64,000 bases of DNA, taken from positions 25,113-89,112 of the forward strand of contig DFOM01000059.1 in NCBI GenBank assembly GCA_002376725.1, given 5' to 3'. The notes under the pieces were generated by a model. The model was not told where the DNA came from. It ran no database searches and saw only the letters and a program-made list of their open reading frames with translations. The DNA is from Cloacimonetes bacterium UBA3541 (GTDB taxonomy: Bacteria; Cloacimonadota; Cloacimonadia; Cloacimonadales; Cloacimonadaceae). The position numbers were made by a program, and so were the translations under genes. Positions 5,732 through 31,623 of the stretch are shown here, piece after piece (position 1 is the stretch's first letter; every line of letters begins with the position of its first letter).

Positions 5732-5746
5732 GGAGAGTTTAATTCA

Positions 5747-6613: not shown

Positions 6614-7979
6614 TAGGAAGGTTCTCGTTAAGCTAAACATAGAAAAAATTGCTTCAGGAGGCTTTGGAATAGGATATGCTGAAGGCAAAGCTATCTTTGT
6701 TCCCTATACTGCTATTGGAGATCAAGTAGAAGTTCAGATCGTATCCCCAAAAAAGGATGTAGCCTTCGCTAAAATCCAGAAATATATTAAAAGAGGACCA
6801 GGAACAATTGAGCCAGGCTGTCCTTCCTTTGGACCACCTCTTTTTTGTGGAGGTTGCGATTGGTTACATCTTTCCTATGAAACTCAGTTAAAATATAAAA
6901 CCAATTTGGTAAGAGAGTTAATCCAGCCTCTTGCTCCCGAAATTAATATTTTAGATACCATAGCTTCACCTGTTACTCAACATTATCGTAATAAATCCTT
7001 TATGCCAGTTGGAAAAGGAGAAACTGGTCTGGAATACGGTATTTACGAACGTTGGTCACATAAAATAGTGGCTCATCATACTTGTCTCTTACATCCTGCT
7101 GAATTTGACCTTATTGCTAATCGCTGTCTGGAATTGATGGATAACGCAAAGGTCCAACCTTATGATGAAATCAATCATACTGGAACTTTAAGACATATTG
7201 GATTTCGTTGTTCAAAAGATAGAAAACAGATACTTCTTATTCTGGTCACCCGAAGTGCTAAATTGCCTTTCAGTAATCTATTGGTGAAGAAATTGACCAG
7301 TGAATTTCCTAATCTTTCTGGAATTATTCAGAATATCAATCGGGAAAGTGGAAATGTTATTTTGGGTAATGAAGAAAAAATTCTATATGGGAGCCCTTGG
7401 ATTACAGAAGAATTAGATAATTTAAAATTTAGGATCCACTATAAGTCGTTCTGGCAGGTTAATTCTTATATACTGCAATTAATTATCAGAGATATAGCTG
7501 ATAAAGTGTTAGCTCAAGATACTGTTCTGGATACCTTTTCAGGCATTGGAGTTTTAGGATTATCCCTCGCAGCTAGAGCTAGAGAAGTTTTTTGTATAGA
7601 AGAATTAACTGATGCTGTTGAAGATGGAAGATACAACTGTCAATTAAATAATATCTCCAATGTTACTTTCCTTTGTGGAAAGACGGAAGATCTTCTACCA
7701 AAAATACTTAATCATCCGGATGTTTACCGCAACTATTCTCCCGAGGTGATAATTCTAGATCCACCCCGAACTGGAGTCCAAAAATCCGTTCTGGAAGAAA
7801 TTATCAAAGTTCAATTGCCCCATATTCTGTACCTTAGCTGTTCTCCCATCACTCTTCGGAGAGACTTAACTCTTTTATTGGATAGTGGTTTATATGAAAT
7901 TACCAGTATTCAACCGTTTGATATGTTTCCTCAAACCTGGCATATTGAGACATTAGTTGAGTTGAAGTTAAAGCGATGA
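6612..7979 (+). CDS. RumA/TrmA-family RNA (uracil-5)-methyltransferase with TRAM domain and Fe-S cysteines; 5' boundary uncertain
   Basis: The track ORF (TTG 6906) carries DTFSGIGVLGLSLA, VIILDPPRTG and LYLSCSPITLRRDL. The same frame is open back to 6609. There it encodes KLNIEKIASGGFGIGYAEGKAIFVPYTAIGDQVEVQIVSPKKDVAFAKI (TRAM-like) and CPSFGPPLFCGGCDWLH (cluster cysteines). There is no ATG/GTG/TTG before 6906. Confidence 0.8.
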   Translation, partial: NRKVLVKLNIEKIASGGFGIGYAEGKAIFVPYTAIGDQVEVQIVSPKKDVAFAKIQKYIKRGPGTIEPGCPSFGPPLFCGGCDWLHLSYETQLKYKTNLVRELIQPLAPEINILDTIASPVTQHYRNKSFMPVGKGETGLEYGIYERWSHKIVAHHTCLLHPAEFDLIANRCLELMDNAKVQPYDEINHTGTLRHIGFRCSKDRKQILLILVTRSAKLPFSNLLVKKLTSEFPNLSGIIQNINRESGNVILGNEEKILYGSPWITEELDNLKFRIHYKSFWQVNSYILQLIIRDIADKVLAQDTVLDTFSGIGVLGLSLAARAREVFCIEELTDAVEDGRYNCQLNNISNVTFLCGKTEDLLPKILNHPDVYRNYSPEVIILDPPRTGVQKSVLEEIIKVQLPHILYLSCSPITLRRDLTLLLDSGLYEITSIQPFDMFPQTWHIETLVELKLKR

Positions 7980-8410
7980 AAAAGATAGGAATATTACTGC
8001 TTTTAGTAATAATAGCTTTTTGTGCTTGTGATACTAATTCCGCAATTCTGGATGAAGAAGAGATAAGAAACATTATTTACGATATTTCTTATGATTTCAG
8101 CTGGAATGATATTAATGGTATAATGGAGTATGTACATAATGATTTCAGACATAATGGAATGTATCGTGATGAATTAAGATTTCTATGGAATGAACGCCGA
8201 AAAAGATATCAACTACTCTCCTGCGATATCTCACAGATATATATAGATAATGAATATGCAACGGTATTTATGACTATGACCTATCAGTCAGCTACTGAAA
8301 CTGTAAGTTTTTCAGAACCAGACACCTTTGGTGATGCTTCCTATTATTATTTTGACCAGGGAAGATGGCAAATATATGGCAATCAAGAATGGAGAATGAA
8401 CAAAAATTAG
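7976..8410 (+). CDS. Small lipoprotein, function unknown
   Basis: Lipobox-like N-terminus MKKIGILLLLVIIAFCACDTN. The start overlaps the preceding stop (ATGA at 7976-7979). Confidence 0.6.
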   Translation: MKKIGILLLLVIIAFCACDTNSAILDEEEIRNIIYDISYDFSWNDINGIMEYVHNDFRHNGMYRDELRFLWNERRKRYQLLSCDISQIYIDNEYATVFMTMTYQSATETVSFSEPDTFGDASYYYFDQGRWQIYGNQEWRMNKN

Positions 8411-8579
8411 AAGGTTATGAAAGTTAGAAGGAAAAAGATAGATATTTATAAATTTCTTTTTAATAATTAGTAAGAAGCTATATATTATGAAGGTTAAGTA
8501 GGTAAGAAAAGAAAATAACACTATTTTTGGCTTGACAATAGGATAATTTATAAATTTATGGATTAAAATATGTAGTTTC

Positions 8580-8654
8580 GGTCCAGTAACTCAGCGGTAG
8601 AGTATCTGCCTTTTAAGCAGAGAGTCGTTGGTTCGATTCCAACCTGGATCACCA
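8580..8654 (+). tRNA. tRNA-Lys (anticodon TTT)
   Basis: Acceptor stem GGTCCAG/CTGGATC. Anticodon stem TCTGC/GCAGA with loop CTTTTAA. T-loop GGTTCGATTCC. CCA is encoded. Confidence 0.9.
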
Positions 8655-8658
8655 TAGC

Positions 8659-8733
8659 GACCCCTTCGTCTATCGGTGAGGACACAAGATTTTCATTCTT
8701 GTAAGAGGGGTTCGATTCCCCTAGGGGTCGCCA
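8659..8733 (+). tRNA. tRNA-Glu (anticodon TTC)
   Basis: Acceptor stem GACCCCT/AGGGGTC. Anticodon stem CAAGA/TCTTG with loop TTTTCAT. T-arm AGGGG-TTCGATT-CCCCT. Discriminator G followed by CCA. Confidence 0.88.
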
Positions 8734-8756
8734 TTTAATTGTGTTTGAGATAGTTA

Positions 8757-8832
8757 GTCCCGTTCGTCTAGTGGCCTAGGACTCGTGATTCTCAGTCACG
8801 CAACAGGGGTTCGATCCCCCTACGGGACGCCA
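8757..8832 (+). tRNA. tRNA-Glu (anticodon CTC)
   Basis: Acceptor stem GTCCCGT/ACGGGAC. Anticodon stem CGTGA/TCACG with loop TTCTCAG. Overall very similar to canonical bacterial tRNA-Glu. CCA is encoded. Confidence 0.88.
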
Positions 8833-8902
8833 TTCAGATTTTAATGGTAAGAGAAAATAGCTGATGGATGAGATAATTATTTCTAACACGGTGAAGTAAA
8901 AA

Positions 8903-9835
8903 ATGAGAGACGATAATAAAATATCGGTTTGGGAACCGGAGATTTTTCCTGATCGGCGTATCAAAATCAGTTTTGAAAGCTTGGGTAATTCGCGCAGCTT
9001 TAAGGTACAACCCTGGCTTTTATATGCGATTTTACTGGTCATTATCGTTGGAATTATACTTCTTTGTATTGCTGCTTTCCGCGGTCCTGATAAGGAAAAC
9101 CTCAATAGAATTCACCGCTTAGAGACCGAAAATCAATACCTGCAAAGCGAACTGGAAAAATTCAATACTCAACTTGATTCAATTAATGCTTTACTGGATT
9201 CATTAAAGATAAAATCCGCCAGTAGGGAAATTAATTATCCTTCTTACAGCGAAAATCTTCAGCCAGTGAATAAACTTTTAGTTCATCCTGCTTTGGATAC
9301 AAAGCTTTCTGCCATAGAAATTAAATTGGAAGTGATAAAAAATCGTTTAACTTACCTGGATTCAAATGGAACTTCTTTAGGAAGCGACTATTTAAGTGAG
9401 GATGAATTGAAAAGTATACCTTCTATCCTACCTACTTTTGGTGAAATTTCCAGCAATTGGGGATTACGCATTCATCCCATTCTGGGTGGAGCAATATGGC
9501 ATCAGGGAATTGATATAGCCAATCAAACTGGCACTCCGGTCTATGCTACTGCAGAAGGCATAGTTTCCAGAGTGGAATCGGATGACGGTTGGGGAAATGT
9601 GATTACCATAGACCATAAAGATGGCTACAGAACCCTGTATGGACATCTCTATAGAAGTAAAGTTCAGCTTGGTGATATTGTTTGTAAGGGTCAAATAATT
9701 GGCTTGATTGGAAGCACAGGAATGTCTACGGGTCCTCATTTGCATTATGGAGTTTATCATAATGGAGCACCAGTAAATCCTGCTTACTATTTAAATAGAC
9801 AGGACCTCAGCTATTATAATATGGTTATAAGATGA
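8903..9835 (+). CDS. M23 (LytM-domain) peptidoglycan endopeptidase with N-terminal membrane anchor and coiled coil
   Basis: TM segment LLYAILLVIIVGIILLCIAAF. LytM motifs HQGIDIANQTGTPVYA and GSTGMSTGPHLHYGV. Confidence 0.88.
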   Translation: MRDDNKISVWEPEIFPDRRIKISFESLGNSRSFKVQPWLLYAILLVIIVGIILLCIAAFRGPDKENLNRIHRLETENQYLQSELEKFNTQLDSINALLDSLKIKSASREINYPSYSENLQPVNKLLVHPALDTKLSAIEIKLEVIKNRLTYLDSNGTSLGSDYLSEDELKSIPSILPTFGEISSNWGLRIHPILGGAIWHQGIDIANQTGTPVYATAEGIVSRVESDDGWGNVITIDHKDGYRTLYGHLYRSKVQLGDIVCKGQIIGLIGSTGMSTGPHLHYGVYHNGAPVNPAYYLNRQDLSYYNMVIR

Positions 9836-17989: not shown

Positions 17990-18064
17990 TCCGGAATAGC
18001 TCAACGGTAGAGCAGGTGGCTGTTAACCACTTGGTTGGGGGTTCGAATCCCTCTTCCGGAGCCA
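17990..18064 (+). tRNA. tRNA-Asn (anticodon GTT)
   Basis: Acceptor stem TCCGGAA/TTCCGGA. Anticodon stem GGTGG/CCACT with loop CTGTTAA. T-loop GGTTCGAATCC. CCA is encoded and followed by a T7 run. Confidence 0.9.
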
Positions 18065-18953: not shown

Positions 18954-20087
18954 ATGCAAATAGAAAAAAATAAATACCAGGATTTTTTGATGCAAGTTAA
19001 AACCAGAATTCAAACATCTCAGGTGCGAGCTATTTTATCTGTAAATGCAGAGTTAATCTATCTTTACTGGGATATTGGACGAATGATAGATAAAAAACAA
19101 AAAGAGGAAGGGTGGGGTGCGGCTGTTATTCCGAATCTATCAAAAGATATTAGAAATGAATTGCCTGAGGTTAAGGGGTTTTCTGAAAGAAATATTGGTA
19201 GAATGATAGCATTTTTCAGGGAATATCCATGCTTAGACCAATTTTTGCCACAGCCTGTGGCAAAATTAGAAGAGAGAAACCATGCTCCAAAAATGCCACA
19301 AGCTGTGGCAAAAATGGCTGCAAAAACTATTATTGAAAAAATATACCCTATTATAACAAACATTCCCTGGGGACACAATATCATCCTTATGGAGAAGGTC
19401 AAGGATATGACTTCTCGCTTATGGTATATGCAAAAAACTATAGAAAATGGCTGGAGTCGTAATATGCTTCGTTCAATGATTGAAGGTAATGCTCATCAGC
19501 GGGAAGGCAAGGCGGTGACCAATTTTGATCTGCGTCTTCCATCTCCACAATCGGATTTAGCAAAACAATCTTTAAAAGACCCTTATATTTTTGATTTTCT
19601 CACTTTAGAGGAACCTTTTAGAGAGCGGGAATTAGAAGTTAGCCTTGTTCAACATTTAGAAAAATTTTTATTGGAATTAGGGCAGGGATTTTCATTTGTA
19701 GGACGGCAATATCATCTCAATGTTGGAGAAAATGATTTTTACATTGATCTTTTATTCTATCATCTTCGTTTAAGGTGTTTTATTGTAATTGAAATAAAAA
19801 AGGGAGAATTTAAGCCTGAATATGCAGGGAAAATTAACTTTTATTGTAATGTGGTTGATGATGTTCTAAAACACGAAACAGACAATCAAACCATAGGTTT
19901 GATCTTATGCCAAGATAAAAATACAGTTGTGGCAGAGTATGCATTGCGTGGATTCAACAAACCAATAGGTGTTTCTAAATATGAATTAACACGTGCATTA
20001 CCAGAGAGCTTAAAATCTTCATTGCCAACAGTAGAAGAAATTGAAGAGGAATTAAAGAATGAAAAAACAAGCAAGAAAGTTGAATGA
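18954..20087 (+). CDS. DUF1016/YhcG-family PD-(D/E)xK nuclease-domain protein (copy 1)
   Basis: N-terminal LIYLYWDIGRMI...GFSERNIGRMIAFF. C-terminal DFYIDLLFYHLRLRCFIVIEIKKGEFKPEYAGKINFY (D...E-x-K core). Confidence 0.85.
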   Translation: MQIEKNKYQDFLMQVKTRIQTSQVRAILSVNAELIYLYWDIGRMIDKKQKEEGWGAAVIPNLSKDIRNELPEVKGFSERNIGRMIAFFREYPCLDQFLPQPVAKLEERNHAPKMPQAVAKMAAKTIIEKIYPIITNIPWGHNIILMEKVKDMTSRLWYMQKTIENGWSRNMLRSMIEGNAHQREGKAVTNFDLRLPSPQSDLAKQSLKDPYIFDFLTLEEPFRERELEVSLVQHLEKFLLELGQGFSFVGRQYHLNVGENDFYIDLLFYHLRLRCFIVIEIKKGEFKPEYAGKINFYCNVVDDVLKHETDNQTIGLILCQDKNTVVAEYALRGFNKPIGVSKYELTRALPESLKSSLPTVEEIEEELKNEKTSKKVE

Positions 20088-20172
20088 GGAATTGCAGGTG
20101 CCTAATATAAAAGCAAAAGAGTTAGAAGAACAAATATCAGAAAATTTAGCAAAGATTATGGGGAAAAAATGA
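20059..20172 (+). CDS. 37-codon ORF translationally coupled to dcm (hypothetical)
   Basis: Below the ORF-track cutoff. It reads MKKQARKLNEELQVPNIKAKELEEQISENLAKIMGKK. Its TGA (20170-20172) overlaps the dcm ATG (20169-20171), and its 5' end overlaps the YhcG stop region. Confidence 0.25.
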   Translation: MKKQARKLNEELQVPNIKAKELEEQISENLAKIMGKK

Positions 20173-21419
20173 AAAATAAATTAACCTTTATTGAATTATT
20201 TGCGGGTGCAGGTGGACTTTCTGAAGGGTTTATAAGAACAGGATTTCAACCAGTGGCATATATTGAAATGGATAAATATTCATGTCTTACACTTAAAACT
20301 CGTATGGCTTACTATTATTTAAGAAGACAGGGTAAAAGTGCTTTATATTCTGGATATATAAAAGGAGATATAACCCGGGAACAATTATATTCTTATATCC
20401 CGCAAAATCTTTTTTGCTCTATTATAAACGAAGAAATAAAGCAGGATACCCTGAGTGAGCTTTTCGGAAAAGTTGAAACAAATATGGAAAAGAACAATAT
20501 AAAACAAATCAATATACTTTTAGGTGGGCCACCGTGTCAGTCTTATTCATTAATCGGGCGGGCTCGCGATCTATACAGGATGGAAAACGATACAAGAAAT
20601 TATCTATATAAATTATATACAGAATTTTTAAAAAAATTTAAGCCAGAGATATTTGTTTTTGAAAATGTTCCAGGCTTAATATCAGCTTATAAAGGTCAAT
20701 TATGGAAGGATATACAGGAATGTTTTTCTAAAGCGGGATATAAAATATCTTACAAAATACTCAATGCTTATGATTTTGGGGTTCTTCAGAATAGAAAGAG
20801 AATTATTGCTATTGGGTGGAGAACAGAATTAAACTTGAAATATCCAGAATTTAATAATGATTATATGGTTAAAAAATATAAAGTTGACGATATTTTATCT
20901 GATTTACCTCCAATAAAAGCAGGTGATAGATTAACAGCAGTTAAGTATGCTGGAAAAGCAACAGAATATCTTACAGAATATGGAATAAGAAATGATGAAG
21001 ATATTCTTACCCTTCATATAGCCCGCAGGCATAATAAACAGGACACAATGATTTATGAATTTTATATTAAAAGCTGGTTTGAGAAAAAGGAGCGCCCTGA
21101 ATATGACCAACTTCCAGAATATCTTAAAACACACAGAAACAGGACTTCATTTAAAGACCGCTTTAAAATTGTAGCACCTGACCTTCCATATTCTCAAACT
21201 GTTGTTTCACATCTTGGGAAAGATGGGCATTATTTCATACATCCTGATATCAATCAGTTAAGGTCAATCTCACCAAGAGAGGCGGCAAGGTTACAGTCAT
21301 TTCCTGATAATTTTTATTTTGAAGGGTCAATGACATCGGTATTCAGGCAAATCGGGAATGCCGTTCCCCCACTGATGGCTGAAAAAATAGCTTTAAAGAT
21401 CAGGGAGATGATAGGATGA
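20169..21419 (+). CDS. dcm: DNA (cytosine-5)-methyltransferase
   Basis: All diagnostic motifs are present: FAGAGGLSEGF (I), LLGGPPCQSYS (IV), FVFENVPGL (VI), QNRKRIIAIG (VIII), RQIGNAVPP (X). Confidence 0.95.
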   Translation: MKNKLTFIELFAGAGGLSEGFIRTGFQPVAYIEMDKYSCLTLKTRMAYYYLRRQGKSALYSGYIKGDITREQLYSYIPQNLFCSIINEEIKQDTLSELFGKVETNMEKNNIKQINILLGGPPCQSYSLIGRARDLYRMENDTRNYLYKLYTEFLKKFKPEIFVFENVPGLISAYKGQLWKDIQECFSKAGYKISYKILNAYDFGVLQNRKRIIAIGWRTELNLKYPEFNNDYMVKKYKVDDILSDLPPIKAGDRLTAVKYAGKATEYLTEYGIRNDEDILTLHIARRHNKQDTMIYEFYIKSWFEKKERPEYDQLPEYLKTHRNRTSFKDRFKIVAPDLPYSQTVVSHLGKDGHYFIHPDINQLRSISPREAARLQSFPDNFYFEGSMTSVFRQIGNAVPPLMAEKIALKIREMIG

Positions 21420-23509
21420 AAAAAGATCTAATATTTAAGCCCCGCGCAAGATTAATTCTTCAACTAGGAGACCAACTCATTAAAAATGAAAGTATTGCAT
21501 TTCTTGAACTCGTAAAAAATGCTTATGATGCAGATGCAACCAGAGTTAGTATTGTAATGGAAAAAGTTGATGACCCAGAGAATGGGAAAATAATTATAGA
21601 AGATGACGGATGTGGAATGACACCTGAAATTATAACAAATGTCTGGATGGAACCAGGAAGTGATTTTAAGGAAAAAATGTTCAGGGAAAACATCAGAACG
21701 CCAAAATTCAAAAGACTGCCACTCGGTGAGAAAGGGATAGGAAGATTTGCTGTTCATAAGTTAGGAAATCTAATTGAGGTTATAACCAGAGCTGAAAATA
21801 ATCCTGAGGTTGTTCTTTCTATAGACTGGAGTCTATTTAATAAATCTGATTACCTTGAAAACATTGGTATCAAGATGATTGAAAGAGAACCTGTTTATTT
21901 TAAAAACAAAACAGGCACAAGAATAAAAATAAAATTAAAAACTGTATTTTCAAGGGGTAGTGTAAGAACCATTTATAGATCTCTTAACTCATTCTGTACA
22001 CCGTTTAGTGATTCTCAACAATTTAAGATTGATTTCAAGATTGACAGGAAAGAATGGATTGAGGGACTCCTTTCCTGGGATGAGATAAAAAATTACTCTT
22101 TATTTAATTTTCTTTGTGAACTGAAAGGAGAAAAAATAATAAAATTCAGGTATGAGTTCACTCCATGGCCTGCAATGACAAAATTAAATGGAAGAATTGT
22201 TGATGAAAATAATGAATATATTAAGAAACAATTAATAATAACTGACAGTAAAGGCAATACAATTAATCTTGATAATTTTAAAATAGGACATATTAGATTT
22301 GAAGGTTTCATATTTGATAGAGATACCCGAATTCTTTCTCTTGGCGTTCATGATAAAAAGGGATTGAAAGAATATCTGGATATGAATGGAGGAGTTAAAG
22401 TATTCCGCGATGGGATAAGGATTTATGATTATGGTGAACCCGATAATGATTGGCTAAACCTTGATAGAAGAAGGGTAAATATTCCAGCAAAAAGAATAAG
22501 TAATAATATTATAATTTCTGCAGTTTATCTTGATAGAGAAAAAAGCATGGATTTAAGAGAAAAAACAAACAGAGAAGGTTTTATTGAAAATGAAGCATAC
22601 AATGAATTAAAAAAATCTTTGATTTATTGTCTGGAGAGAGTAGAAGAGTTACGATATGAAGATAAAAATAAAATAAGAACAAATTATGGTCTGGAAAACA
22701 AGAAAGAACCGGTTGTTTCCACTATAAAAGAATTAAAAACAGTGGTTGAAAGTAAAATAAAAGAAGAAACTGTCAAAAGAGAAATCAATAAACTCCTTGA
22801 TAGAATAGAAGGCGATTATGTGCAAATGAAAGAAGTCCTTCTTAAAAGTGCAGGGGCAGGTCTTACATTAAGTGTGGTTATCCACGAGATTGAGAAAATA
22901 ATTGATGAATTAGAAAAAGTTGTAAAATATGAAAAATCTTCTGAGAAAATTATTAACCTTGTTAAACATCTGGCAGACCTTATAGAAGGCTATACTCTCA
23001 TAATAAGAAAAACAGAAACTAAAAAATGGGATTTAAAGCAATTAATAAATCAAGCAATATTCAATATGGAATATCGCTTTAAAGTGCATAATATTGAAAT
23101 AAAAAAAGATTATGAGAATAAAACAGATAAATTTGAAGTTAATTGTGCAAGAAATCTTGTATTAAATTCTCTTATGAATATAATGGACAACTCAATCTGG
23201 TGGATGGAGTATTCAAAAATTCAACATAAGAAAATTTTCATAACTATTTCTGAAAATATAGAGAAGAGTATAACAATAGTTATAGCAGACAATGGACCGG
23301 GATTAACACTTTCCACTGAAGAAATAATAAAACCATTTGTATCTGCAAAACCTGATGGAATGGGTCTTGGATTGCATATCGTGGATGAAGTTATGAAGGC
23401 TCATAAAGGATTACTTTTATTTCCTCAACCAGATGAGTTTGATATACCAGAGGAATTTGAAAAAGGTGCCATTGTTGCACTTGCATTTCAAAAGGAGGTT
23501 GTAAAATGA
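21416..23509 (+). CDS. Cytoplasmic double-Bergerat ATPase: N-terminal MORC/MutL-like GHKL domain plus C-terminal histidine-kinase core (H, N, G1, F, G2 boxes)
   Basis: N-terminus: FLELVKNAYDADATRV, IIIEDDGCGMT, GEKGIGRFAVHKLG. C-terminus: LSVVIHEIEKII (H-box-like), LMNIMDNSIWW (N), IVIADNGPGL (G1), IIKPFVSAK (F), GMGLGLHIV (G2). No TM segments. ATGA overlaps at both ends. Confidence 0.75.
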   Translation: MKKDLIFKPRARLILQLGDQLIKNESIAFLELVKNAYDADATRVSIVMEKVDDPENGKIIIEDDGCGMTPEIITNVWMEPGSDFKEKMFRENIRTPKFKRLPLGEKGIGRFAVHKLGNLIEVITRAENNPEVVLSIDWSLFNKSDYLENIGIKMIEREPVYFKNKTGTRIKIKLKTVFSRGSVRTIYRSLNSFCTPFSDSQQFKIDFKIDRKEWIEGLLSWDEIKNYSLFNFLCELKGEKIIKFRYEFTPWPAMTKLNGRIVDENNEYIKKQLIITDSKGNTINLDNFKIGHIRFEGFIFDRDTRILSLGVHDKKGLKEYLDMNGGVKVFRDGIRIYDYGEPDNDWLNLDRRRVNIPAKRISNNIIISAVYLDREKSMDLREKTNREGFIENEAYNELKKSLIYCLERVEELRYEDKNKIRTNYGLENKKEPVVSTIKELKTVVESKIKEETVKREINKLLDRIEGDYVQMKEVLLKSAGAGLTLSVVIHEIEKIIDELEKVVKYEKSSEKIINLVKHLADLIEGYTLIIRKTETKKWDLKQLINQAIFNMEYRFKVHNIEIKKDYENKTDKFEVNCARNLVLNSLMNIMDNSIWWMEYSKIQHKKIFITISENIEKSITIVIADNGPGLTLSTEEIIKPFVSAKPDGMGLGLHIVDEVMKAHKGLLLFPQPDEFDIPEEFEKGAIVALAFQKEVVK

Positions 23510-24792
23510 GTTTACCAGAATATGGGAGGGTTGTTATTATAGATGATAATATAAAAGAAGTTGAAGCGTTGATTAAAGTATTATCTAAACATAGAACATC
23601 CATAACTTATTTTACTGGGGCTAATAATGAATTACCGGACACTCCATTTCCTGATGTAAGAATTGTTTTTCTTGATGTTGTTCTTGAAGGGCTTACAGGA
23701 AAAGATACAAAGACAATTGTGTCCACCCTGATTGGGATTCTTGGGAAAATTGTCGATAAAAACAATGGACCATTTGTTATAGTTTTATGGACAAAGCATC
23801 CTGAACATGTAAAGGGTCTTAAAAAAGCCCTTAAAACAGAAAAATATAAATATATTCTTATTGACCTTGAAAAAAAAGATTTTTTTGATCAGAATGGAGG
23901 TTTCAAGCTCGATTCTTATGATTCTCTTAGAAATAGATTAAATGAAAAAATTGCTGGGATTGATATTTTTGATATATTCATCATATGGGAAAATATTATG
24001 AATAATTCAGCAGGTATAACAGTTAATGATTTTTCACAACTGATTAAGTTTAATGATAACTGGAATAATGATATGAAAAATATTTTTTATAAAATGGCTG
24101 AAGCTTGGGCTGGTAAAACTCTTAAGGAACAAAATACACAGAAAATTTTAAAAAATGCCTTATTCACTTTTAATGGGATTTTTAATGATATTTTTGAAGG
24201 TTTGATACAGAATGAAAAATACTCAGCTTATCAAGGTACTTTTTCTTCTAACAACATAAATGAAAAAAACAAAGGCAGAATCAATATAAAATTGTTGCTA
24301 GATTTCAGCGATCTGGAAAAGTTTTATCCGGGAGATGTTTACAGAATAAATAAAAATGCAAAGAATAGTTCTGAACTACTGAAGGATATTTTGGATATTA
24401 ATAAGATTAATGATGAAAAATTTTTTAAAATAAAAAAGAAATCAATACAGGTATTTGCAGAAGTGACACCTTTATGTGATTTTCTACAGGAAAAAATAAA
24501 ACTATACAGGGTAATAGAAGGATTCATTATTCCAGAAAAATATAAAGATGAACAAAACATTGATCATTATGTAAAAATAAAAAAAGCCGAATTTATTTAT
24601 AAAACACCAGTTTTTACGTATAAAAATGAAATATATAGATTAATTCTGGACTTTAAATATTTTTCTTCTAAAACAAAAGATGAACTTAAAAACTTCTCCC
24701 CAATCTTCAGGTTGAGAAAAGAACTATTAAATGATATACAGATAAAACTTTCATCGCATATTAACAGAACAGGAATATTATTTATTGATTAA
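23506..24792 (+). CDS. Receiver (REC)-like N-terminal domain fused to an unassigned ~290-aa C-terminal domain
   Basis: RVVIIDDNIKE (acidic pair after beta1), VRIVFLDVVLEG (candidate phospho-acceptor Asp), FVIVLWTKH (beta4 Thr), YILIDLEKK (candidate Lys). I recognise no motif in the remainder. Confidence 0.6.
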   Translation: MSLPEYGRVVIIDDNIKEVEALIKVLSKHRTSITYFTGANNELPDTPFPDVRIVFLDVVLEGLTGKDTKTIVSTLIGILGKIVDKNNGPFVIVLWTKHPEHVKGLKKALKTEKYKYILIDLEKKDFFDQNGGFKLDSYDSLRNRLNEKIAGIDIFDIFIIWENIMNNSAGITVNDFSQLIKFNDNWNNDMKNIFYKMAEAWAGKTLKEQNTQKILKNALFTFNGIFNDIFEGLIQNEKYSAYQGTFSSNNINEKNKGRINIKLLLDFSDLEKFYPGDVYRINKNAKNSSELLKDILDINKINDEKFFKIKKKSIQVFAEVTPLCDFLQEKIKLYRVIEGFIIPEKYKDEQNIDHYVKIKKAEFIYKTPVFTYKNEIYRLILDFKYFSSKTKDELKNFSPIFRLRKELLNDIQIKLSSHINRTGILFID

Positions 24793-25513
24793 TATGGTAA
24801 GAATACAACCCAACATTGTCAAATGGTATCGGATAAATGGACGTGATTTTCCGTGGAGACATACAAAAGACCCTTACAAAATAATGATTGCTGAATTTAT
24901 GCTTCATAGAACAAAAGCAGAACAGGTGGTACCGGTATATTCTAAATTTATAGAAAAATACCCTTGCGTTAAATCTCTTTTCATGGCAAAAGGAAATGAT
25001 ATTAAAAAATTTACTGCTCATCTTGGATTACATTGGAGAAGCAGGCATTTTATTGAATCCGTCAGATATATCATAAAAAAGTTTGATGGGAAATTCCCTG
25101 ATGATTATGATGAACTAAGAAAGATACCTGGAATTGGAGAATATATTGCAGGGGCAATAATGACAGTATCTTTTAATAAACCTGCTCCTGTGGTTGATAG
25201 CAACATAGCCAGATTTATAAATAGATATTACGGATTGAATCTTGATGGAGAACTTAGAAGAAAAAGAGAAATTATAAGAATTGCTTATGAACTTTTTAAA
25301 TACAAAAATCCAGGGTTATTTCTCTTTGCTATTATAGATTTTACAGCAGTTATCTGCAAACCACGAATACCTTTATGTCAGAATTGTCCCCTGGAAAAAG
25401 AATGTGAAAATACGGAGATTACACTATGTAAGAATAAGATCACCAGGCCAAATCAGCAGCAAAAAAAGCAGGAAGGTAAAAAATATCAGAAATTGGAGAT
25501 GGATAGTGAATAA
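24785..25513 (+). CDS. HhH-GPD DNA glycosylase with Fe-S cluster loop, MutY/EndoIII/Mig-like, lacking the MutY C-terminal domain
   Basis: DFPWRHTKDPYKIMIAEFMLHRTKAEQV, HhH LRKIPGIGEYIAGAIM, catalytic-Asp region VVDSNIARF, cluster CKPRIPLCQNCPLEKEC. Only 242 aa. 8-nt overlap with the upstream gene. Confidence 0.85.
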   Translation: MINMVRIQPNIVKWYRINGRDFPWRHTKDPYKIMIAEFMLHRTKAEQVVPVYSKFIEKYPCVKSLFMAKGNDIKKFTAHLGLHWRSRHFIESVRYIIKKFDGKFPDDYDELRKIPGIGEYIAGAIMTVSFNKPAPVVDSNIARFINRYYGLNLDGELRRKREIIRIAYELFKYKNPGLFLFAIIDFTAVICKPRIPLCQNCPLEKECENTEITLCKNKITRPNQQQKKQEGKKYQKLEMDSE

Positions 25514-25645
25514 GAACAAGACAAATCCGTGGATACTAAGAAAAATTTTTGCAATATGTCAGATTTAAGCTGGACGACGGTCTTTAAAAAGAGTAACACA
25601 CAATATAAAGTCATCACCGAAGAAAAAAGCAGAGATAAATAATTT

Positions 25646-26350
25646 ATGGGTAAAGAAAAGAAATATCCAAAGGCAATTATAAACTGGCCTGAAGATGAAA
25701 GACCACGGGAACGTCTTTTGAAATTAGGTGCTGAAAATCTTTCTAATACAGAACTTTTAGCAATTATTTTAAGAGTCGGCTCAAATGGTAAAAGTGCTAT
25801 TGATATGGCAAGGGAATTGATGAATGAATATCAAACTTTTAGAAATATTGACTCTAAGAGTTTTGCCGAACTTAAAAGAAAAGGCTTAGGTATTGCTAAA
25901 ATTGCTCAAATAAAAGCAGCTATAGAAATTGGCAAAAGATTTCTTAATGACAAAAGTTTGACTAAAGTCAAGGTTGAAACCAGCAAGGATATAGTTGATT
26001 ATTTTAAGCCTTCCTTGAGGGATATGAAAAAAGAAATTTTTAAAGCAGTTCTGCTTGACGGAAAAAATAAAATAATTAAAGAAGTAACTATATCAGAAGG
26101 AACTCTTACAAAAAGCATTGTCCATCCGAGAGAGGTTATAAAAGAAGCAGTTATAGAATCTTCAGCGGCTTTGGTACTTATTCATAACCACCCAAGCGGT
26201 GAGCCTGAACCAAGTCAAGATGATATAGAAATAACTAATCGTATAATCTCTGCCTGTGACCTTGTGGGTATAAAAGTTTTAGACCATATTATCATTGGCG
26301 ATGACAACTATTTTAGTTTTTTCAATGAAGGACTGATAAAGGAGGAGTAA
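25646..26350 (+). CDS. radC: RadC-family JAB/MPN domain protein
   Basis: N-terminal ERPRERLLKLGAENLSNTELLAIILRVG and JAMM motif LVLIHNHPSGEPEPSQDD. Confidence 0.92.
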   Translation: MGKEKKYPKAIINWPEDERPRERLLKLGAENLSNTELLAIILRVGSNGKSAIDMARELMNEYQTFRNIDSKSFAELKRKGLGIAKIAQIKAAIEIGKRFLNDKSLTKVKVETSKDIVDYFKPSLRDMKKEIFKAVLLDGKNKIIKEVTISEGTLTKSIVHPREVIKEAVIESSAALVLIHNHPSGEPEPSQDDIEITNRIISACDLVGIKVLDHIIIGDDNYFSFFNEGLIKEE

Positions 26351-26352
26351 TA

Positions 26353-27249
26353 ATGCCCAAAACCCTTTTTATTGAGGCTGCATACCAAGTGTTAAAGGAA
26401 AAAGGAGAACCATTAAGTGCAGAAGAAATAACTAAAATTGCCCTTGATAAAGGATTAATGAAGACTACTGGCAAAACTCCAGTGGCAACTATGGGAGCAA
26501 GAATTTATATGGATATGAAAACAAAGGGCAATAATTCTTTATTCACAAAAGTTAAACGAGGTGAGTTTGGTTTGAAAGAATGGCAAGAATTTGCTCAAAA
26601 GCAGGAAGTCTATGGATATAGAAAAGGTAGTTTTAAAGATGCAGCATATCAAGTTTTAAAATTAGAAAATAAGCCTTTAAGCATTCAAAAAATTACCGAA
26701 ATTGCTATGAAGAGAAATCTGTTTACATCCTCTGGCAAAACTCCCGAGGCAACAATGGGAGCACAATTATATACAGATATCAAAAGATTGGGGGACCAAT
26801 CCCCTTTTGTTCAATTGGGCAAAAACAAATTTGGATTACGAGAGTGGGATATTAGCGTTCTTAAAAATGAAATTAAAATTCAGGAAAAAGAAACAATAAT
26901 TTCTGAGAAAAAGCGCTCTATTGTTGGAGACCCGATTAACTTTGAAGGATTGATTTATGGACCTTTAAATGAAAATGGAGTTATATTTTTATTTAGCAAG
27001 ATTCACGATAAGTTGGAAATAAATATTGAAGCAATTCAGGCAACATTTCCTGACGCTAAAGGTCGGAGGAAAACTACTAAAGGCTGGGAGGATGTTTGGA
27101 TTGAATTTGAATATAAGAGTTCACATTTTAAGATTCATAAACACGATCCAAGTGAATGTGACCTTATTGTTTGCTGGGAACATGATTGGAAAGAATGTCC
27201 TATTGATGTTATTGAGTTAAAATCCGTGATACAAAAATTAAAGGGGTAA
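26353..27249 (+). CDS. Tandem HARE-HTH domains fused to a small PD-(D/E)xK-like C-terminal domain
   Basis: Two paralogous wHTH units: EAAYQVLKEKGEPLSAEEITKIALDKGLMKTTGKTPVATMGARIYMDMK...GEFGLKEW and DAAYQVLKLENKPLSIQKITEIAMKRNLFTSSGKTPEATMGAQLYTDIK...NKFGLREW. The C-terminus reads TFPDAKG...VWIEFEYKSSHFKIHKHDPSECDLIVCWEHDW. Confidence 0.7.
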   Translation: MPKTLFIEAAYQVLKEKGEPLSAEEITKIALDKGLMKTTGKTPVATMGARIYMDMKTKGNNSLFTKVKRGEFGLKEWQEFAQKQEVYGYRKGSFKDAAYQVLKLENKPLSIQKITEIAMKRNLFTSSGKTPEATMGAQLYTDIKRLGDQSPFVQLGKNKFGLREWDISVLKNEIKIQEKETIISEKKRSIVGDPINFEGLIYGPLNENGVIFLFSKIHDKLEINIEAIQATFPDAKGRRKTTKGWEDVWIEFEYKSSHFKIHKHDPSECDLIVCWEHDWKECPIDVIELKSVIQKLKG

Positions 27250-27252
27250 CCT

Positions 27253-29142
27253 ATGCCTGAAAAAGAATATAAACCAACTGAGGAACTTGAAGCAAAAGAA
27301 GGGTATGTAAAGGATTTTTTAACTAACCGATTAATCCGCTCTACCCCGGAGGAACAAGTTAGGCAAATTATGTTGATGAGATTGGTACAAGAATACGAAT
27401 ATCCTATAGAATGTATAAAAACAGAGTTTGAAATACAAAAAGGAAGTAAAAGAATTGGTCCCGCAGATATTGTAGTTTTTAAAGATGCAAAAAGCAAAGA
27501 CCAGGAGAATATTTGGATTATTGTAGAAACCAAACGCAAAGAACGTTCTGACGGTATTGAACAATTAAAAAGTTATTTGGCTCCCTGCCTCAACGCTAAG
27601 TTTGGGATATGGTTTAATGGTAATAATATTGCCTATATTGAAGTAGTTAGAAACAGGGATAAATTTGAATTCAAAGATGTTCTTAGAATACCTAAATGTG
27701 GGGAAACTACAATTCATCTTCCAGAAAAGAAAGATTTAAAACCAGCACCAGAATTAAAAAGCATTTTTGAAACATGTCATAATTATATTTATGCAAATGA
27801 AGGATTGCTTAAGGAAAAAGTTTTTAATGAAGTTTTAAAACTTATTTTTATAAAAATGGTTGATGAAAAAAGAAGTTCTGCAAAATGTGAATTTGGAATA
27901 ACATCAGAAGAGGAAGAAGAAATAAAAGAGGGTAAGTCAAGTGTTTTTACAGAAAGAATTATAAATCTTTTTAAAGAAGTAAAGTCAATGTATAGTGATG
28001 TCTTTGAACAGAATGAAAGGATAAATTTAAAGCCAATTACTCTTGCCTTTGTTGTAAGCCAACTTCAAGAATATAGCCTTATAGAAACAAAAGCAGATGT
28101 TAAAGGGACTGCCTTTCAGACATTTGTCTCTGCTCACCAAAGGGGAGAGCGAGGTGAATTCTTTACTCCACACCCCATAGTTGAATTAGCTGTTGAAATG
28201 CTTGACCCAAAAGATAATGAAAAATTTATTGACCCTGCATGTGGCTCAGGAGGTTTTCTTGTTAATGGGATGAACTATGTTAAGGAAAAATTTATCAAGG
28301 AAAGACCTGACAAAAAATCTAAAGCAAACGAAATCCTCAAAGAATATACTCATTTTCATATATCAGGTATAGATATTAATCCAGATTTATCAAAGGTCGC
28401 CAAGATGCATATGATTTTATACGATGATGGGCATACAGGAATATTTTCTGCAAACAGTCTTTCATCATTTGAAGAACTAATGGACTTGGCGTCAAGGGCA
28501 CGAGTTCCACTTTCTCTTACTCCTTCGCCTAATGCTTTTGATGTTTTGATGACAAATCCTCCTTTTGGAAGTAAAGGCAAGGTAACAGATAAAAGAATCT
28601 TAAAGCAGTTTGAACTTGGTTATAAATGGAGACAAGACAAAACCACTGGAAAATGGATAAAAACAGATGAACTACAAAATGGACAAGTCCCAGATATTTT
28701 GTTCATTGAAAGGTGTCTGCAACTTCTCAAAGATGGTGGTAGGATGGCAATCGTCTTACCAGATGGTAATCTAAATAATTCATCTTTAGGTTATGTTAGG
28801 GAATTTATACAGCAGAATGCAAGGATTTTAGCAGTTGTTTCAATGCCTGTTGGAACTTTTATGCAAGCAGGAGTAAACCCCAAGACAAGCGTTTTATTCT
28901 TACAAAAACTCAATGAAGAAAAATTAAATGAACTCAAAAAAGCTAATTATCCAATTTTTATGGCAGTAGTTGAAAAGATTGGCTATGACTTAAATTCAAA
29001 AACACCAAAAGTTATGTATAAGAAAGATGAAAAAGGAGAGGTTCTAAAAGATGATGATGGCGAGCCAATTATAGATACAGATATTCCAAAAATTATTGAG
29101 GCATTTAAAGACTTTAAAAGAAAATATCAATTAGGATTTTAA
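27253..29142 (+). CDS. N6-adenine DNA methyltransferase (HsdM/gamma class) with N-terminal HSDR_N-type PD-(D/E)xK module; BcgI-A-like
   Basis: N-terminus: PEEQVRQIMLMRLVQEYEYP...IGPADIVVF...IWIIVETKRK. MTase motifs: EFFTPHPIVELAVEMLDP (X), FIDPACGSGGFLV (I), VLMTNPPFGSKG (IV). Confidence 0.85.
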   Translation: MPEKEYKPTEELEAKEGYVKDFLTNRLIRSTPEEQVRQIMLMRLVQEYEYPIECIKTEFEIQKGSKRIGPADIVVFKDAKSKDQENIWIIVETKRKERSDGIEQLKSYLAPCLNAKFGIWFNGNNIAYIEVVRNRDKFEFKDVLRIPKCGETTIHLPEKKDLKPAPELKSIFETCHNYIYANEGLLKEKVFNEVLKLIFIKMVDEKRSSAKCEFGITSEEEEEIKEGKSSVFTERIINLFKEVKSMYSDVFEQNERINLKPITLAFVVSQLQEYSLIETKADVKGTAFQTFVSAHQRGERGEFFTPHPIVELAVEMLDPKDNEKFIDPACGSGGFLVNGMNYVKEKFIKERPDKKSKANEILKEYTHFHISGIDINPDLSKVAKMHMILYDDGHTGIFSANSLSSFEELMDLASRARVPLSLTPSPNAFDVLMTNPPFGSKGKVTDKRILKQFELGYKWRQDKTTGKWIKTDELQNGQVPDILFIERCLQLLKDGGRMAIVLPDGNLNNSSLGYVREFIQQNARILAVVSMPVGTFMQAGVNPKTSVLFLQKLNEEKLNELKKANYPIFMAVVEKIGYDLNSKTPKVMYKKDEKGEVLKDDDGEPIIDTDIPKIIEAFKDFKRKYQLGF

Positions 29143-29143
29143 G

Positions 29144-30250
29144 ATGGAGAATAAAAAAATAACCACTAGAAATTATACAAGCCTGCTTGATAGAATTGCA
29201 GAAATTTTAGTAGAGGGAAGAACAAAGGTAGTGCGAGAAATAAACAGGGCTCAAGTATTAACTTACTGGGAGATTGGAAGAGAAATTGTTGAGTTTGAAC
29301 AGAAAGGTAAGGCAAGAGCAAAATACGGAAAAGAACTTATTGCAAAATTAGCAAAAGATATGACACAAAAATTTGGTAGAGGATTTTCGGAGAGAAACTT
29401 GTGGAATATGAGAGCTTTTTATCTCAATTTTCCAATTCCGCAGACACTGTCTGCAGAATTTTTAGAAGGTAAAAAATCCGAGACACTGTCTAGTAAATCT
29501 TTAATTAGTCAGACTTCGTCTGACCAATTTGAACCTATGTTATCCTGGTCTCATTACTGCGAATTGCTAAAAGTAGAAGAACTTCTTGCCCGTTCTTTTT
29601 ATGAACAAGAAGCAATCCAGAATAACTGGTCTGTGAGAGAATTAAAAAGGCAAATTAACTCAATGCTTTTTGAAAGAATTGCTTTAAGTAAGGATACAAA
29701 TGCAGTAATGGAAATGGCTAAAAAAGGACAGATTGTAGAAAAACCAGAAGATGCAATTAAAGATCCATACATCCTTGAGTTTCTTAATCTTAAAGAAGAG
29801 ACATCTTATACTGAATCTCAACTTGAGCAAGCACTCATTGATAAACTCCAATATTTCTTATTAGAACTTGGTAAAGGTTTTACTTTTGTTGCCCGTCAGA
29901 AAAGAATTACGATTGCGAATCGTCATTATTATGTGGATTTGGTTTTCTATAATCGGCTGTTAAAGTGTTTTGTTTTAATTGATTTGAAAACAGACGAACT
30001 TGACCATTCAGATATTGGTCAGATGAATTTCTACCTGAACTATTTCAAAGAGAATGAAAAACAAGCAGATGAAAACGATCCAATTGGGCTTATACTCTGT
30101 GCAATGAAAGACGATATTTTTGCAAAGTATGTTTTAGGTGGATTAAACAATAAAGTTTTCGCTTCAAAATATAAATTAGCACTACCATCAGAAGAAGAGC
30201 TATGCCTCAAGCTTAAATCAATACCAAAAATATTGGAGGAAAAGAAATGA
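29144..30250 (+). CDS. DUF1016/YhcG-family PD-(D/E)xK nuclease-domain protein (copy 2), inserted between the M and S genes
   Basis: VLTYWEIGREIVEFEQ...GFSERNLWNMRAFY and HYYVDLVFYNRLLKCFVLIDLKTDELDHSDIGQMNFY. Same architecture as 18954-20087. Confidence 0.85.
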   Translation: MENKKITTRNYTSLLDRIAEILVEGRTKVVREINRAQVLTYWEIGREIVEFEQKGKARAKYGKELIAKLAKDMTQKFGRGFSERNLWNMRAFYLNFPIPQTLSAEFLEGKKSETLSSKSLISQTSSDQFEPMLSWSHYCELLKVEELLARSFYEQEAIQNNWSVRELKRQINSMLFERIALSKDTNAVMEMAKKGQIVEKPEDAIKDPYILEFLNLKEETSYTESQLEQALIDKLQYFLLELGKGFTFVARQKRITIANRHYYVDLVFYNRLLKCFVLIDLKTDELDHSDIGQMNFYLNYFKENEKQADENDPIGLILCAMKDDIFAKYVLGGLNNKVFASKYKLALPSEEELCLKLKSIPKILEEKK

Positions 30251-31623
30251 TTATTTCAGAAATAAGATATAATCAGGCAATTAAAAGGTTGAGATTTGAT
30301 GCTGAGTTTTATAACCCTTTCAAACTTGAGTCGATGCGAACATTAAATGCAATTACTAGTAATACAATAGGGGAGAAATTTAATTCAATTAGAGATGTAT
30401 TTGATCCAAATAAATATTACCAAAAGAATGAAACTGCTAATATTGTTGAACTTGCTGATATATCCAATAAATTTGTGTCAAACAAACGGACATGTAAAAT
30501 TTACGAAGTCGGTAGCCAGAAGAAAAAATTTAACAAGAATGACGTGTTAATATCAAGACTACGCTCTTACCTTGAAGAAATTTTTTATGCTATAGATTTT
30601 CCAGAAAATAAAATAAACTTGTGTTCAACCGAATTTATTGTTTTACGAAGGAAGGAAAAAGAAAATGTCACACCTGAGTTTCTGTATATACTGCTTCAAA
30701 CATCATTTATACAGGAGATTTTAAAATGGAGTCAAGATGGAACAAATCACCCACGATTTGACGAAGATTACTTATTAGACTTACCATTTCCTATACCTTC
30801 TATCGTTTTCCAGCAAAAAATAGAATTAATTGTTAAAGAAGCATATAAAAAGCGAAAAGAAGCAGATGAAAAATATAAACAGGCAGAAGTTTTGTTGAAT
30901 AAAGCATTAGGGATTGAAAAATTAGAATTAAAAGATGAAAAGATTTTTGAAACAGGATTTGATGAAGTTGAAAGTGTATTGCGTTTTGATGCAGAGCATT
31001 ATCAACCAAAATATAAGGAAGTGAGAAAATTTATCGGCACGGCAGGATATGAAGTTAGAAAACTAAGAGATGCTGTTGAAATCTCCGATAATAAGATAAG
31101 TCCTTTATCTAAACCCACTGAATTATTTAGTTATATTGAACTTGCTAACATAAATTCCTCCACTGGTGAAATAGAAGAAGTCAATCAAATAAAAGGATAT
31201 AATGCACCAAGCCGGGCAAGGATGCTTGTGAGAAAAGGGGATGTATTAGTTTCTTCGCTTCTGGGATCTCTTGATAATATTGGTTTGGTTCCCGAAAAAT
31301 TAGATGGTTCAATAGCAAGCACTGGATTTTTTGTGATAAGGTCTAAATTTTTCTTGCCTGAATTTTTATTTTTACTATTCAAGTCAAACTTGATGAGATT
31401 GCAACTTGAAGAAAAAACAGCAGGAGCAATCATGAGTGCAGTCCCAAAAAATACTTTTGGCGATTTGCTTGTTCCTATGATTCCTGAAGAAACACAAAAA
31501 CAAATCTCAAACCTTATCAGACAATCATTTTCTCTTCGCAAAGAATCAAAAGAACTTTTAGAAAAGGCAAAAAAAGAAGTTGAAGAATTTATTGAGAAAA
31601 ATACTAATTACAACCGCCCCTGA
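30247..31623 (+). CDS. hsdS: Restriction-modification specificity (S) subunit with two target-recognition halves
   Basis: Two half-repeats, each beginning LRFDAEFYNPFK / LRFDAEHYQPKYK, followed by variable TRD sequence and helical spacers (KEADEKYKQAEVLLNKAL, KESKELLEKAKKEVEEFI). Confidence 0.88.
   Translation: MIISEIRYNQAIKRLRFDAEFYNPFKLESMRTLNAITSNTIGEKFNSIRDVFDPNKYYQKNETANIVELADISNKFVSNKRTCKIYEVGSQKKKFNKNDVLISRLRSYLEEIFYAIDFPENKINLCSTEFIVLRRKEKENVTPEFLYILLQTSFIQEILKWSQDGTNHPRFDEDYLLDLPFPIPSIVFQQKIELIVKEAYKKRKEADEKYKQAEVLLNKALGIEKLELKDEKIFETGFDEVESVLRFDAEHYQPKYKEVRKFIGTAGYEVRKLRDAVEISDNKISPLSKPTELFSYIELANINSSTGEIEEVNQIKGYNAPSRARMLVRKGDVLVSSLLGSLDNIGLVPEKLDGSIASTGFFVIRSKFFLPEFLFLLFKSNLMRLQLEEKTAGAIMSAVPKNTFGDLLVPMIPEETQKQISNLIRQSFSLRKESKELLEKAKKEVEEFIEKNTNYNRP

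Follow-up and report, generated by a model that had tools for sequence, protein, structure and literature searches.

We analysed a 64,000-nt stretch of DNA from Cloacimonetes bacterium UBA3541 (GenBank assembly GCA_002376725.1, contig DFOM01000059.1, positions 25,113 to 89,112 of the forward strand; hereafter the window) and found that the gene at 23506-24792 on the + strand encodes a 428-amino-acid (aa) protein, hereafter the regulator, in which a CheY-like receiver is followed by an output domain shared by a large protein family. The regulator gene is the third of four closely packed + strand genes, which together make up a restriction-modification-like module of a C5 methylase, a MORC-like kinase, a receiver-effector and a mismatch glycosylase. 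We favour, tentatively and at somewhat less than an even chance, a reading in which a methylation-guarded phosphorelay switches on a nucleic-acid-targeting toxin, the regulator being one half of a dedicated cytoplasmic two-component pair that would serve as the restriction-like arm of the Dcm module.

The regulator gene starts with an ATG and overlaps the stop of the kinase gene by 4 nt, so that the two are translationally coupled. An identical protein is on record as “hypothetical protein” (33 contigs, Candidatus Syntrophosphaera metagenome-assembled genome, Cloacimonadota). The receiver (aa 1-128, 23506-23889, + strand) was delimited from beta/alpha secondary structure, Foldseek matches and residue conservation. 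In the AlphaFold2 model of the 428-aa protein (mean predicted local distance difference test [pLDDT] 86, predicted template modelling score 0.74), aa 8-121 adopt a receiver-type beta/alpha layout with five strands and three helices by DSSP, and the top matches of a Foldseek search against the PDB were all receiver domains (PorX, AmiR, FixJ and PmrA, with E-values of 1e-5 to 1e-3). An initial annotation, made from the sequence alone, had called this receiver from four motifs, all of which are present and conserved: among 94 full-length homologues, conservation is 96% for D13, 87% for D14, 99% for D57, 97% for S/T96 and 98% for K123, and the same five positions are invariant or almost so in two independently built alignments (A1 and A3). 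Asp57 (codon 23674-23676, + strand), at the corresponding motif position, is the predicted phospho-acceptor. The Pfam Response_reg profile (PF00072) gave 14-18 bits, below its gathering cut-off of 30.2, so this receiver is divergent. Judging from the model and the conserved residues, aa 1-128 is a genuine CheY-like receiver with an intact phospho-acceptor pocket.

The gene directly upstream (21416-23509, + strand) encodes a soluble 697-aa hybrid kinase, in which Pfam, NCBIfam and PDB matches delineate a MORC/paraMORC-like GHKL ATPase, a DHp helix with an H-box and an ATP-binding domain. Two Pfam domains were detected, HATPase_c_3 at aa 27-156 (E-value of 2.7e-19) and HATPase_c at aa 586-688 (E-value of 2.4e-18). 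The N-terminus matches that of the BbrUII/HgiDII restriction enzymes (NCBIfam) and human MORC2 (PDB), and the C-terminal half aligns with the sensor kinases AtoS (NCBIfam) and ZraS (PDB) over the DHp and ATP-binding domains. The predicted autophosphorylation site, His490 (codon 22883-22885, + strand), lies in the H-box VVIHEIEK, and both this His and the next Glu are invariant in 73/73 homologues; position +4 of the H-box is Lys, the phosphatase-linked Thr/Asn being absent there. Across these 73 homologues, 99-100% conservation was found for E31 (catalytic), N35 and D63xGxG67 of the N-terminal ATPase and for H490-E491, N592, D625xGxG629 and G648xGxG652 of the kinase core, so selection acts strongly on the phosphorylatable His and on each of the two ATP sites. 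From the invariant His490-Glu491 and the intact ATP-binding boxes, we predict that the kinase transfers phosphate to the adjoining regulator.

The output domain (aa 129-428) gave no match in library scans of Pfam, NCBIfam, PADLOC, PHROGs or PDB sequences. In the models it divides into a bundle of five helices (aa 129-266, with a model extent of ~135-264; 23890-24303, + strand), which likewise matches no library entry and has W161-E162, G203, D228 and N260 as its conserved residues, and a basic, beta-rich subdomain (aa 267-428, model extent ~277-420 with a helix at the end; 24304-24789, + strand), which was defined from the models, a pI of 9.3 and its invariant residues. The conserved blocks of the latter comprise G276 in PG(D/N)VY, then P322, C324 and D325 in TPxCD followed by Q328 and K330, which form a TPxCDxxQxK signature (24466-24495, + strand) invariant in the alignments, and a C-terminal block with F401/R402, H418, R421 and G423. 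The initial annotation had singled out three conserved-looking patches by eye, and these coincide with conserved blocks of the family. Its description of the C-terminal domain as lacking an assignable motif also stands, in that no helix-turn-helix, nuclease, TIR, SIR2 or PNP signature was found and the domain is not a known transcriptional output domain. The invariant P-x-C-D...K...R signature forms a cluster that resembles an active site. The HxNRxG(I/V) tail (aa 418-428, 24757-24789, + strand) is conserved and predicted to be disordered in both models; its last 8-10 residues have a pLDDT of ~40 and yet lie inside one of the best-conserved blocks of the family, which suggests that the tail is ordered only within a complex. 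From this combination of conservation and modelled disorder, the tail may be a docking or autoinhibitory element.

Three assignments of the output domain were considered and rejected. A PD-(D/E)xK reading of D325, Q328 and K330 is contradicted by the position of these residues, which are too close together and sited on a helix and a loop. For a papain-like Cys-His peptidase, the sole candidate His is H418, which is replaced in 16% of homologues and is a Tyr in the Campylobacter type described below. Finally, no modified-base reader (SRA, PUA or EVE) was among the 50 top Foldseek PDB matches listed.

The initial annotation had also proposed a Foldseek comparison of the isolated C-terminal domain. 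This search returned nothing with an E-value of 0.001 or less, and the only coherent set in the top 50 matches, a weak one, consisted of ~20 MazF/PemK/MoxT toxin structures from seven or more species (E. coli, B. subtilis, S. aureus, M. tuberculosis, D. radiodurans, B. cereus and B. anthracis), with E-values of 0.02-1, TM-scores by target of 0.49-0.62 and probabilities mostly of 0.75-0.99 (one of 0.51). Weak matches named PemK-like and endoribonuclease were obtained from BFVD, a viral structure library, and the profile of the beta subdomain searched against all PDB sequences had AbiQ as its sole match (E-value of 8.3). The active site of MazF consists of Arg/Thr. Toxins of the ToxN/AbiQ type have the MazF/Kid/CcdB fold and a Tyr/Lys/Thr/Ser/Lys active site (PMC5086642). 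The likeness to the MazF/ToxN fold comprises collinear elements: the first strand bears a Gly motif, the central one terminates in a motif that contains Pro, and a long, bent strand precedes the C-terminal helix. The output domain differs in having large helical insertions, no antitoxin and no significant sequence or profile similarity to these toxins. We give a MazF/ToxN-like fold of the beta subdomain roughly an even chance, and consider it less likely that the output domain is an RNase than that it has this fold.

The four genes of the operon overlap by 4 nt (methylase and kinase), 4 nt (kinase and regulator) and 8 nt (regulator and glycosylase). The first (20169-21419, + strand) encodes a C5 cytosine DNA methyltransferase (Dcm), identified by Pfam DNA_methylase (E-value of 3.6e-64) and NCBIfam dcm (192 bits). 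The best PADLOC match of this methylase is DrmMII, the DISARM class 2 methylase (E-value of 2e-167, full length), and no other DISARM gene is present. The fourth (24785-25513, + strand) encodes a MutY/Nth-type HhH-GPD glycosylase that lacks the C-terminal domain of MutY (Pfam HhH-GPD and HHH) and matched the PADLOC “Type II nicking endonuclease” model (E-value of 1.6e-40) and scored 178 bits with NCBIfam mutY, under the cut-off of 286.5. By analogy, it is likely a T:G mismatch glycosylase that offsets 5-methylcytosine (5mC) deamination, the role of Vsr in other loci. In Pfam, PADLOC and NCBIfam scans of the kinase and the regulator, which stand beside the methylase, no recognised nuclease domain was found. 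Promoter and terminator scans gave results no better than those of shuffled sequences.

To collect relatives of the regulator, a profile of the output domain (aa 130-428) was scored against 1.84 billion representatives of 50% identity clusters with an E-value threshold of 0.001, yielding 1,665 matching cluster representatives; a word-index search for relatives of the regulator had returned 49 clusters only. In the best 150 profile matches the domain was C-terminal in all, and in most it was preceded by ~95-210 residues (full-length sequences of 396-556 aa). The initial annotation had suggested looking for fusions of the output domain to other sensor modules, and none were found: 176 of 191 family proteins contain the same receiver, the other 15 being short, fragment-like or deletion fusions, and because of this the domain does not appear to be shuffled among other sensor modules in the 191-protein sample. 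A profile search of a large protein collection returned close relatives only, a search from the Agrobacterium protein gave matches that were all unannotated, and a cluster look-up produced a single name, Poribacteria. There was no match in a blastn search of E. coli genomes, and one partial match in a tblastn search of the 540-aa subtype against plasmids.

Loci were collected from contigs of one genome per species using a degenerate DNA pattern for P-x-C-D-[FY]-x-x-Q-x-K-x4-R-x3-G, yielding a total of 98 loci, of which at least 93 are true homologues. The pattern residues are conserved by construction in this set, so their conservation rests on alignments A1 and A3. With phyla assigned from record titles, the family is present in at least 12: Bacteroidota, Planctomycetota, Cloacimonadota, Ignavibacteriota, Verrucomicrobiota, Acidobacteriota, Myxococcota, Spirochaetota, Fusobacteriota, Campylobacterota, Pseudomonadota and Bacillota, the last including Streptococcus suis, Paenibacillus and Neobacillus; one further contig is labelled archaeal. 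Of the 84 loci with enough flank, 77 have the kinase gene immediately upstream in the same orientation, and the remaining 7 also have a tblastn match to the kinase upstream; the gap between the two genes mostly falls between -4 and +8 nt. Of 46 loci with enough flank, 36 have a C5 methylase gene upstream in the same orientation. Among 73 loci, the downstream gene encodes Vsr in 11, HNH_2 in 11, a HhH-GPD glycosylase in 10 and another protein in 41. Loci from metagenomes and plasmids have the same pattern of gene neighbours as the other relatives.

The downstream genes bear on a reading in which the pair serves DNA repair or epigenetic maintenance and not defence: a MutL/MORC-like ATPase would report hemimethylated DNA or 5mC-related lesions to a factor working together with Vsr or the glycosylase. 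A Vsr or mismatch glycosylase gene directly downstream in 21/73 loci and the relationship of the GHKL module to MutL and MORC are consistent with such a role, which we nevertheless consider very improbable.

A shorter form of the system was found on pTet-type conjugative plasmids of Campylobacter jejuni/coli (41 records), which encode a 732-aa kinase, a 340-aa “response regulator” and a convergent dcm (5001-9454 of locus L110 in Campylobacter jejuni plasmid p15597A-2). The C-terminus of the 340-aa protein is homologous to that of the window protein (hhalign, 89%, E-value of 2.4e-6) and follows a shorter linker; it retains P-G, T-P-x-C-D, K and R-x-G and is without Q328 and H418.

A kinase-regulator pair of this kind has been linked to restriction-modification by comparative genomics: Bellieny-Rabelo et al. 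2021 (PMC8011034) described response regulator (RR)-like/histidine kinase (HK)-like pairs whose linkage was 91.6%, with a C5 methylase gene lying upstream and Vsr and HNH_2 in the vicinity, and proposed that they act in signalling that controls restriction-modification systems. The window locus resembles these pairs in its receiver-like protein without any other known domain, its adjoining soluble kinase with HATPase_c_3, a DHp His-Glu and HATPase_c, and its upstream C5 methylase; its relatives likewise have Vsr or HNH_2 downstream and span many phyla, and the H-box, like that of PF19191, has no Thr/Asn at +4. The window proteins did not match the PF19192 and PF19191 profile hidden Markov models (HMMs) at E-values up to 10, and these models may be narrow, missing from the Pfam copy used, or built on a sister lineage. 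There was also no match to either model in 60 relatives (E-values up to 0.01) or in the Agrobacterium, Burkholderia, Campylobacter and Enterobacter versions, and the precomputed Pfam annotation of relatives was empty. From domain content and gene order, we take the locus to be the same in kind, though not by HMM match, as the published pair, here in a Cloacimonadota member. The kinase/regulator/methylase arrangement is not new, having been described in 2021; that description did not extend to the output domain and its function, as the earlier study left the C-terminal 300 aa unanalysed and proposed a regulatory and not an effector role. No later experimental work on the pair was found in the literature.

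The regulatory role proposed in that study would have the C-terminal domain bind DNA or a partner and thereby control the adjoining methylase or restriction genes. It accords with response regulators being mostly transcription factors and with a locus that varies around a constant kinase-regulator core. It sits less well with the output domain, in which no helix-turn-helix or other known output domain was found and whose invariant Cys-Asp-Gln-Lys-Arg cluster suggests an active site more than it does a surface for reading DNA, or with the gene order, since the pair is co-transcribed with the methylase and not divergent from it and many loci have only the methylase and a repair gene to regulate. 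We regard a purely regulatory function as rather improbable.

The tight linkage to a C5 methylase could also indicate DNA restriction proper, with the C-terminal domain acting as a new DNA endonuclease or DNA-binding restriction subunit that is licensed by phosphotransfer from the MORC-like kinase, and not as an RNase or abortive toxin. Most loci contain no other nuclease, so the restriction function would have to sit in the regulator, the kinase N-terminus is like that of GHKL-containing type II restriction enzymes, and the domain is basic with invariant Asp, Gln, Lys and Arg. However, the domain bears no PD-(D/E)xK, HNH, GIY-YIG or PLD signature, no nuclease structure was among its Foldseek matches, the spacing of D325, Q328 and K330, which the model places in a six-residue stretch of short helix and loop, is unlike that of a PD-(D/E)xK core, and a separate HNH_2 nuclease follows the gene in 11/73 loci. 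We therefore consider a DNA-cleaving or DNA-binding restriction subunit unlikely.

Under the favoured phosphorelay-toxin reading, the methylase would mark host DNA, and the MORC-like ATPase module of the kinase would engage DNA and report DNA that is unmodified or foreign. His490 would then be autophosphorylated and the phosphate transferred to Asp57, which would relieve inhibition of the C-terminal domain or dimerise it. The C-terminal domain would in turn attack nucleic acid, the fold hints favouring RNA cleavage in the style of MazF/ToxN, and restriction, abortive infection or an arrest of growth would result; the part of the glycosylase or Vsr would be confined to repairing the T:G mismatches caused by the methylase. 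A more specific version, in which methylation-based discrimination of self from non-self is relayed from His to Asp by a MORC-like clamp to an unrecognised toxin, either a very divergent nuclease of the MazF/ToxN fold or a toxin with a new, Cys-nucleophile chemistry, is conceivable but doubtful.

We favour the phosphorelay-toxin reading for three reasons, namely the proteins related to the kinase, the precedent of Detocs and a natural deletion variant. In restriction-modification operons, paraMORC ATPases occur together with nucleases (Iyer, Abhiman and Aravind 2008, PMC2292703), and in neighbourhoods of this kind they are fused to HEPN RNases (Anantharaman et al. 2013). Related GHKL proteins of such operons, BbrUII/HgiDII among them, have a nuclease or RNase following the ATPase. 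Like paraMORC/MORC GHKL proteins, including BbrUII/HgiDII, the window kinase opens with the GHKL module and lies near Dcm, Vsr and sometimes HNH; whereas those have a nuclease or helicase of their own or recruit one directly, the window ATPase is fused to a histidine-kinase core and works with a separate receiver-effector.

Detocs (DtcA/DtcB/DtcC) is proof that a killing domain can be placed under the control of a relay from kinase to receiver: its kinase phosphorylates a regulator in which a cell-killing effector replaces the DNA-binding output, and defence depends on both the His and the Asp (Rousset et al. 2023, bioRxiv 10.1101/2023.01.24.525353). We use this relay as the working model for the window pair, which is not itself a Detocs system. 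Detocs senses via TPR repeats, whereas the window kinase has the MORC-like GHKL ATPase in that place and no TPR was found in it; Detocs has a stand-alone receiver, DtcB, as a buffer, and the window operon has none; the Detocs effector, DtcC, is a PNP ATP nucleosidase, and the window regulator contains no PNP domain; and Detocs has no methylase, whereas the window operon has one. The window locus thus lacks every feature that defines Detocs membership, and the regulator had no PADLOC match to any defence model.

The third reason comes from sister Syntrophosphaera strains, which share the island at 95-98% identity and lack, through an in-frame deletion, 2,240 bp corresponding to 21862-24101 of the window. 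The deletion takes out the kinase core and the receiver and leaves the methylase, the glycosylase and the other island genes in place. It fuses aa 1-148 of the kinase to aa ~199-428 of the regulator (proteins P0008, P0009 and P0012, on at least 9 contigs; fusion genes at 3193-4335 of locus L108 and 3253-4395 of locus L109), with a few bases of microhomology at the junction. By analogy, a deletion that keeps the methylase would be the decay expected of a costly restriction arm, leaving an orphan methylase.

Several results weigh against the phosphorelay-toxin reading. In this deletion fusion the beta subdomain remains in frame, and it is therefore not lethally toxic when freed of the receiver, or needs activation. 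In about one fifth of loci the methylase is not within reach, and it is not nearby on an Enterobacter mori plasmid (L111) that encodes a regulator of a similar 357-aa type. The reading also presupposes that the MORC-like module can read methylation status. All toxin-fold signals are below significance, though mutually consistent: hhalign produced no alignment of the beta subdomain with five MazF sequences, its alignment with an 11-member ToxN/AbiQ alignment was collinear but had a P-value of 0.04 and a probability of 1%, and no family member matched Pfam PemK even at an E-value of 10. The domain has an invariant Cys-Asp where MazF-type toxins have Arg/Thr and ToxN-type toxins have Tyr/Lys/Thr/Ser/Lys, and no assay or significant homology links it to an enzymatic activity. 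The initial annotation had proposed that the gene encodes a candidate effector of a defence operon; the receiver, the dedicated upstream kinase and the restriction-modification-like operon speak for this, whereas killing or interference by the domain is a supposition and the toxin likeness (MazF/PemK/ToxN) does not reach significance.

If the phosphorelay-gated toxin is real, it would represent a new class of system for restriction or abortive infection, with well over 1,000 protein clusters and also present on Campylobacter conjugative plasmids. It would join restriction-modification, MORC-type ATPases and two-component signalling, three well-studied subjects that have so far stood apart, and would offer a directly testable case of a MORC-like ATPase that reports the epigenetic state of DNA. 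The family is large, we found no experiments on it, and it is absent from defence-system catalogues (PADLOC). To the published arrangement, the present analysis adds the size of the output-domain family and its fixed architecture, the invariant signature, the weak toxin-fold lead, the Campylobacter plasmid subtype and the natural deletion variant.

The four genes lie within a 12.7-kb defence-type island (18954-31623) that directly follows a tRNA-Asn gene (17990-18064); no integrase was found in the island, nor any att-like repeat of the tRNA-Asn. The other genes of the island encode two DUF1016/YhcG proteins (PADLOC PDC-S02), RadC, a HARE-HTH protein, an N6 methylase with an HSDR_N_2 domain and an HsdS-like protein, HsdR not being present. 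In locus L108, an AbiJ/Abi_C gene takes the place of the second DUF1016 gene. The protein encoded at 26353-27249 contains two HARE-HTH domains and has an end that reads IEFEYKSSHFKIHKHDPSECDLIVCWEHDW, which by eye is like a PD-(D/E)xK nuclease core; from this resemblance, it may be the restriction partner of the adjoining N6 methylase.

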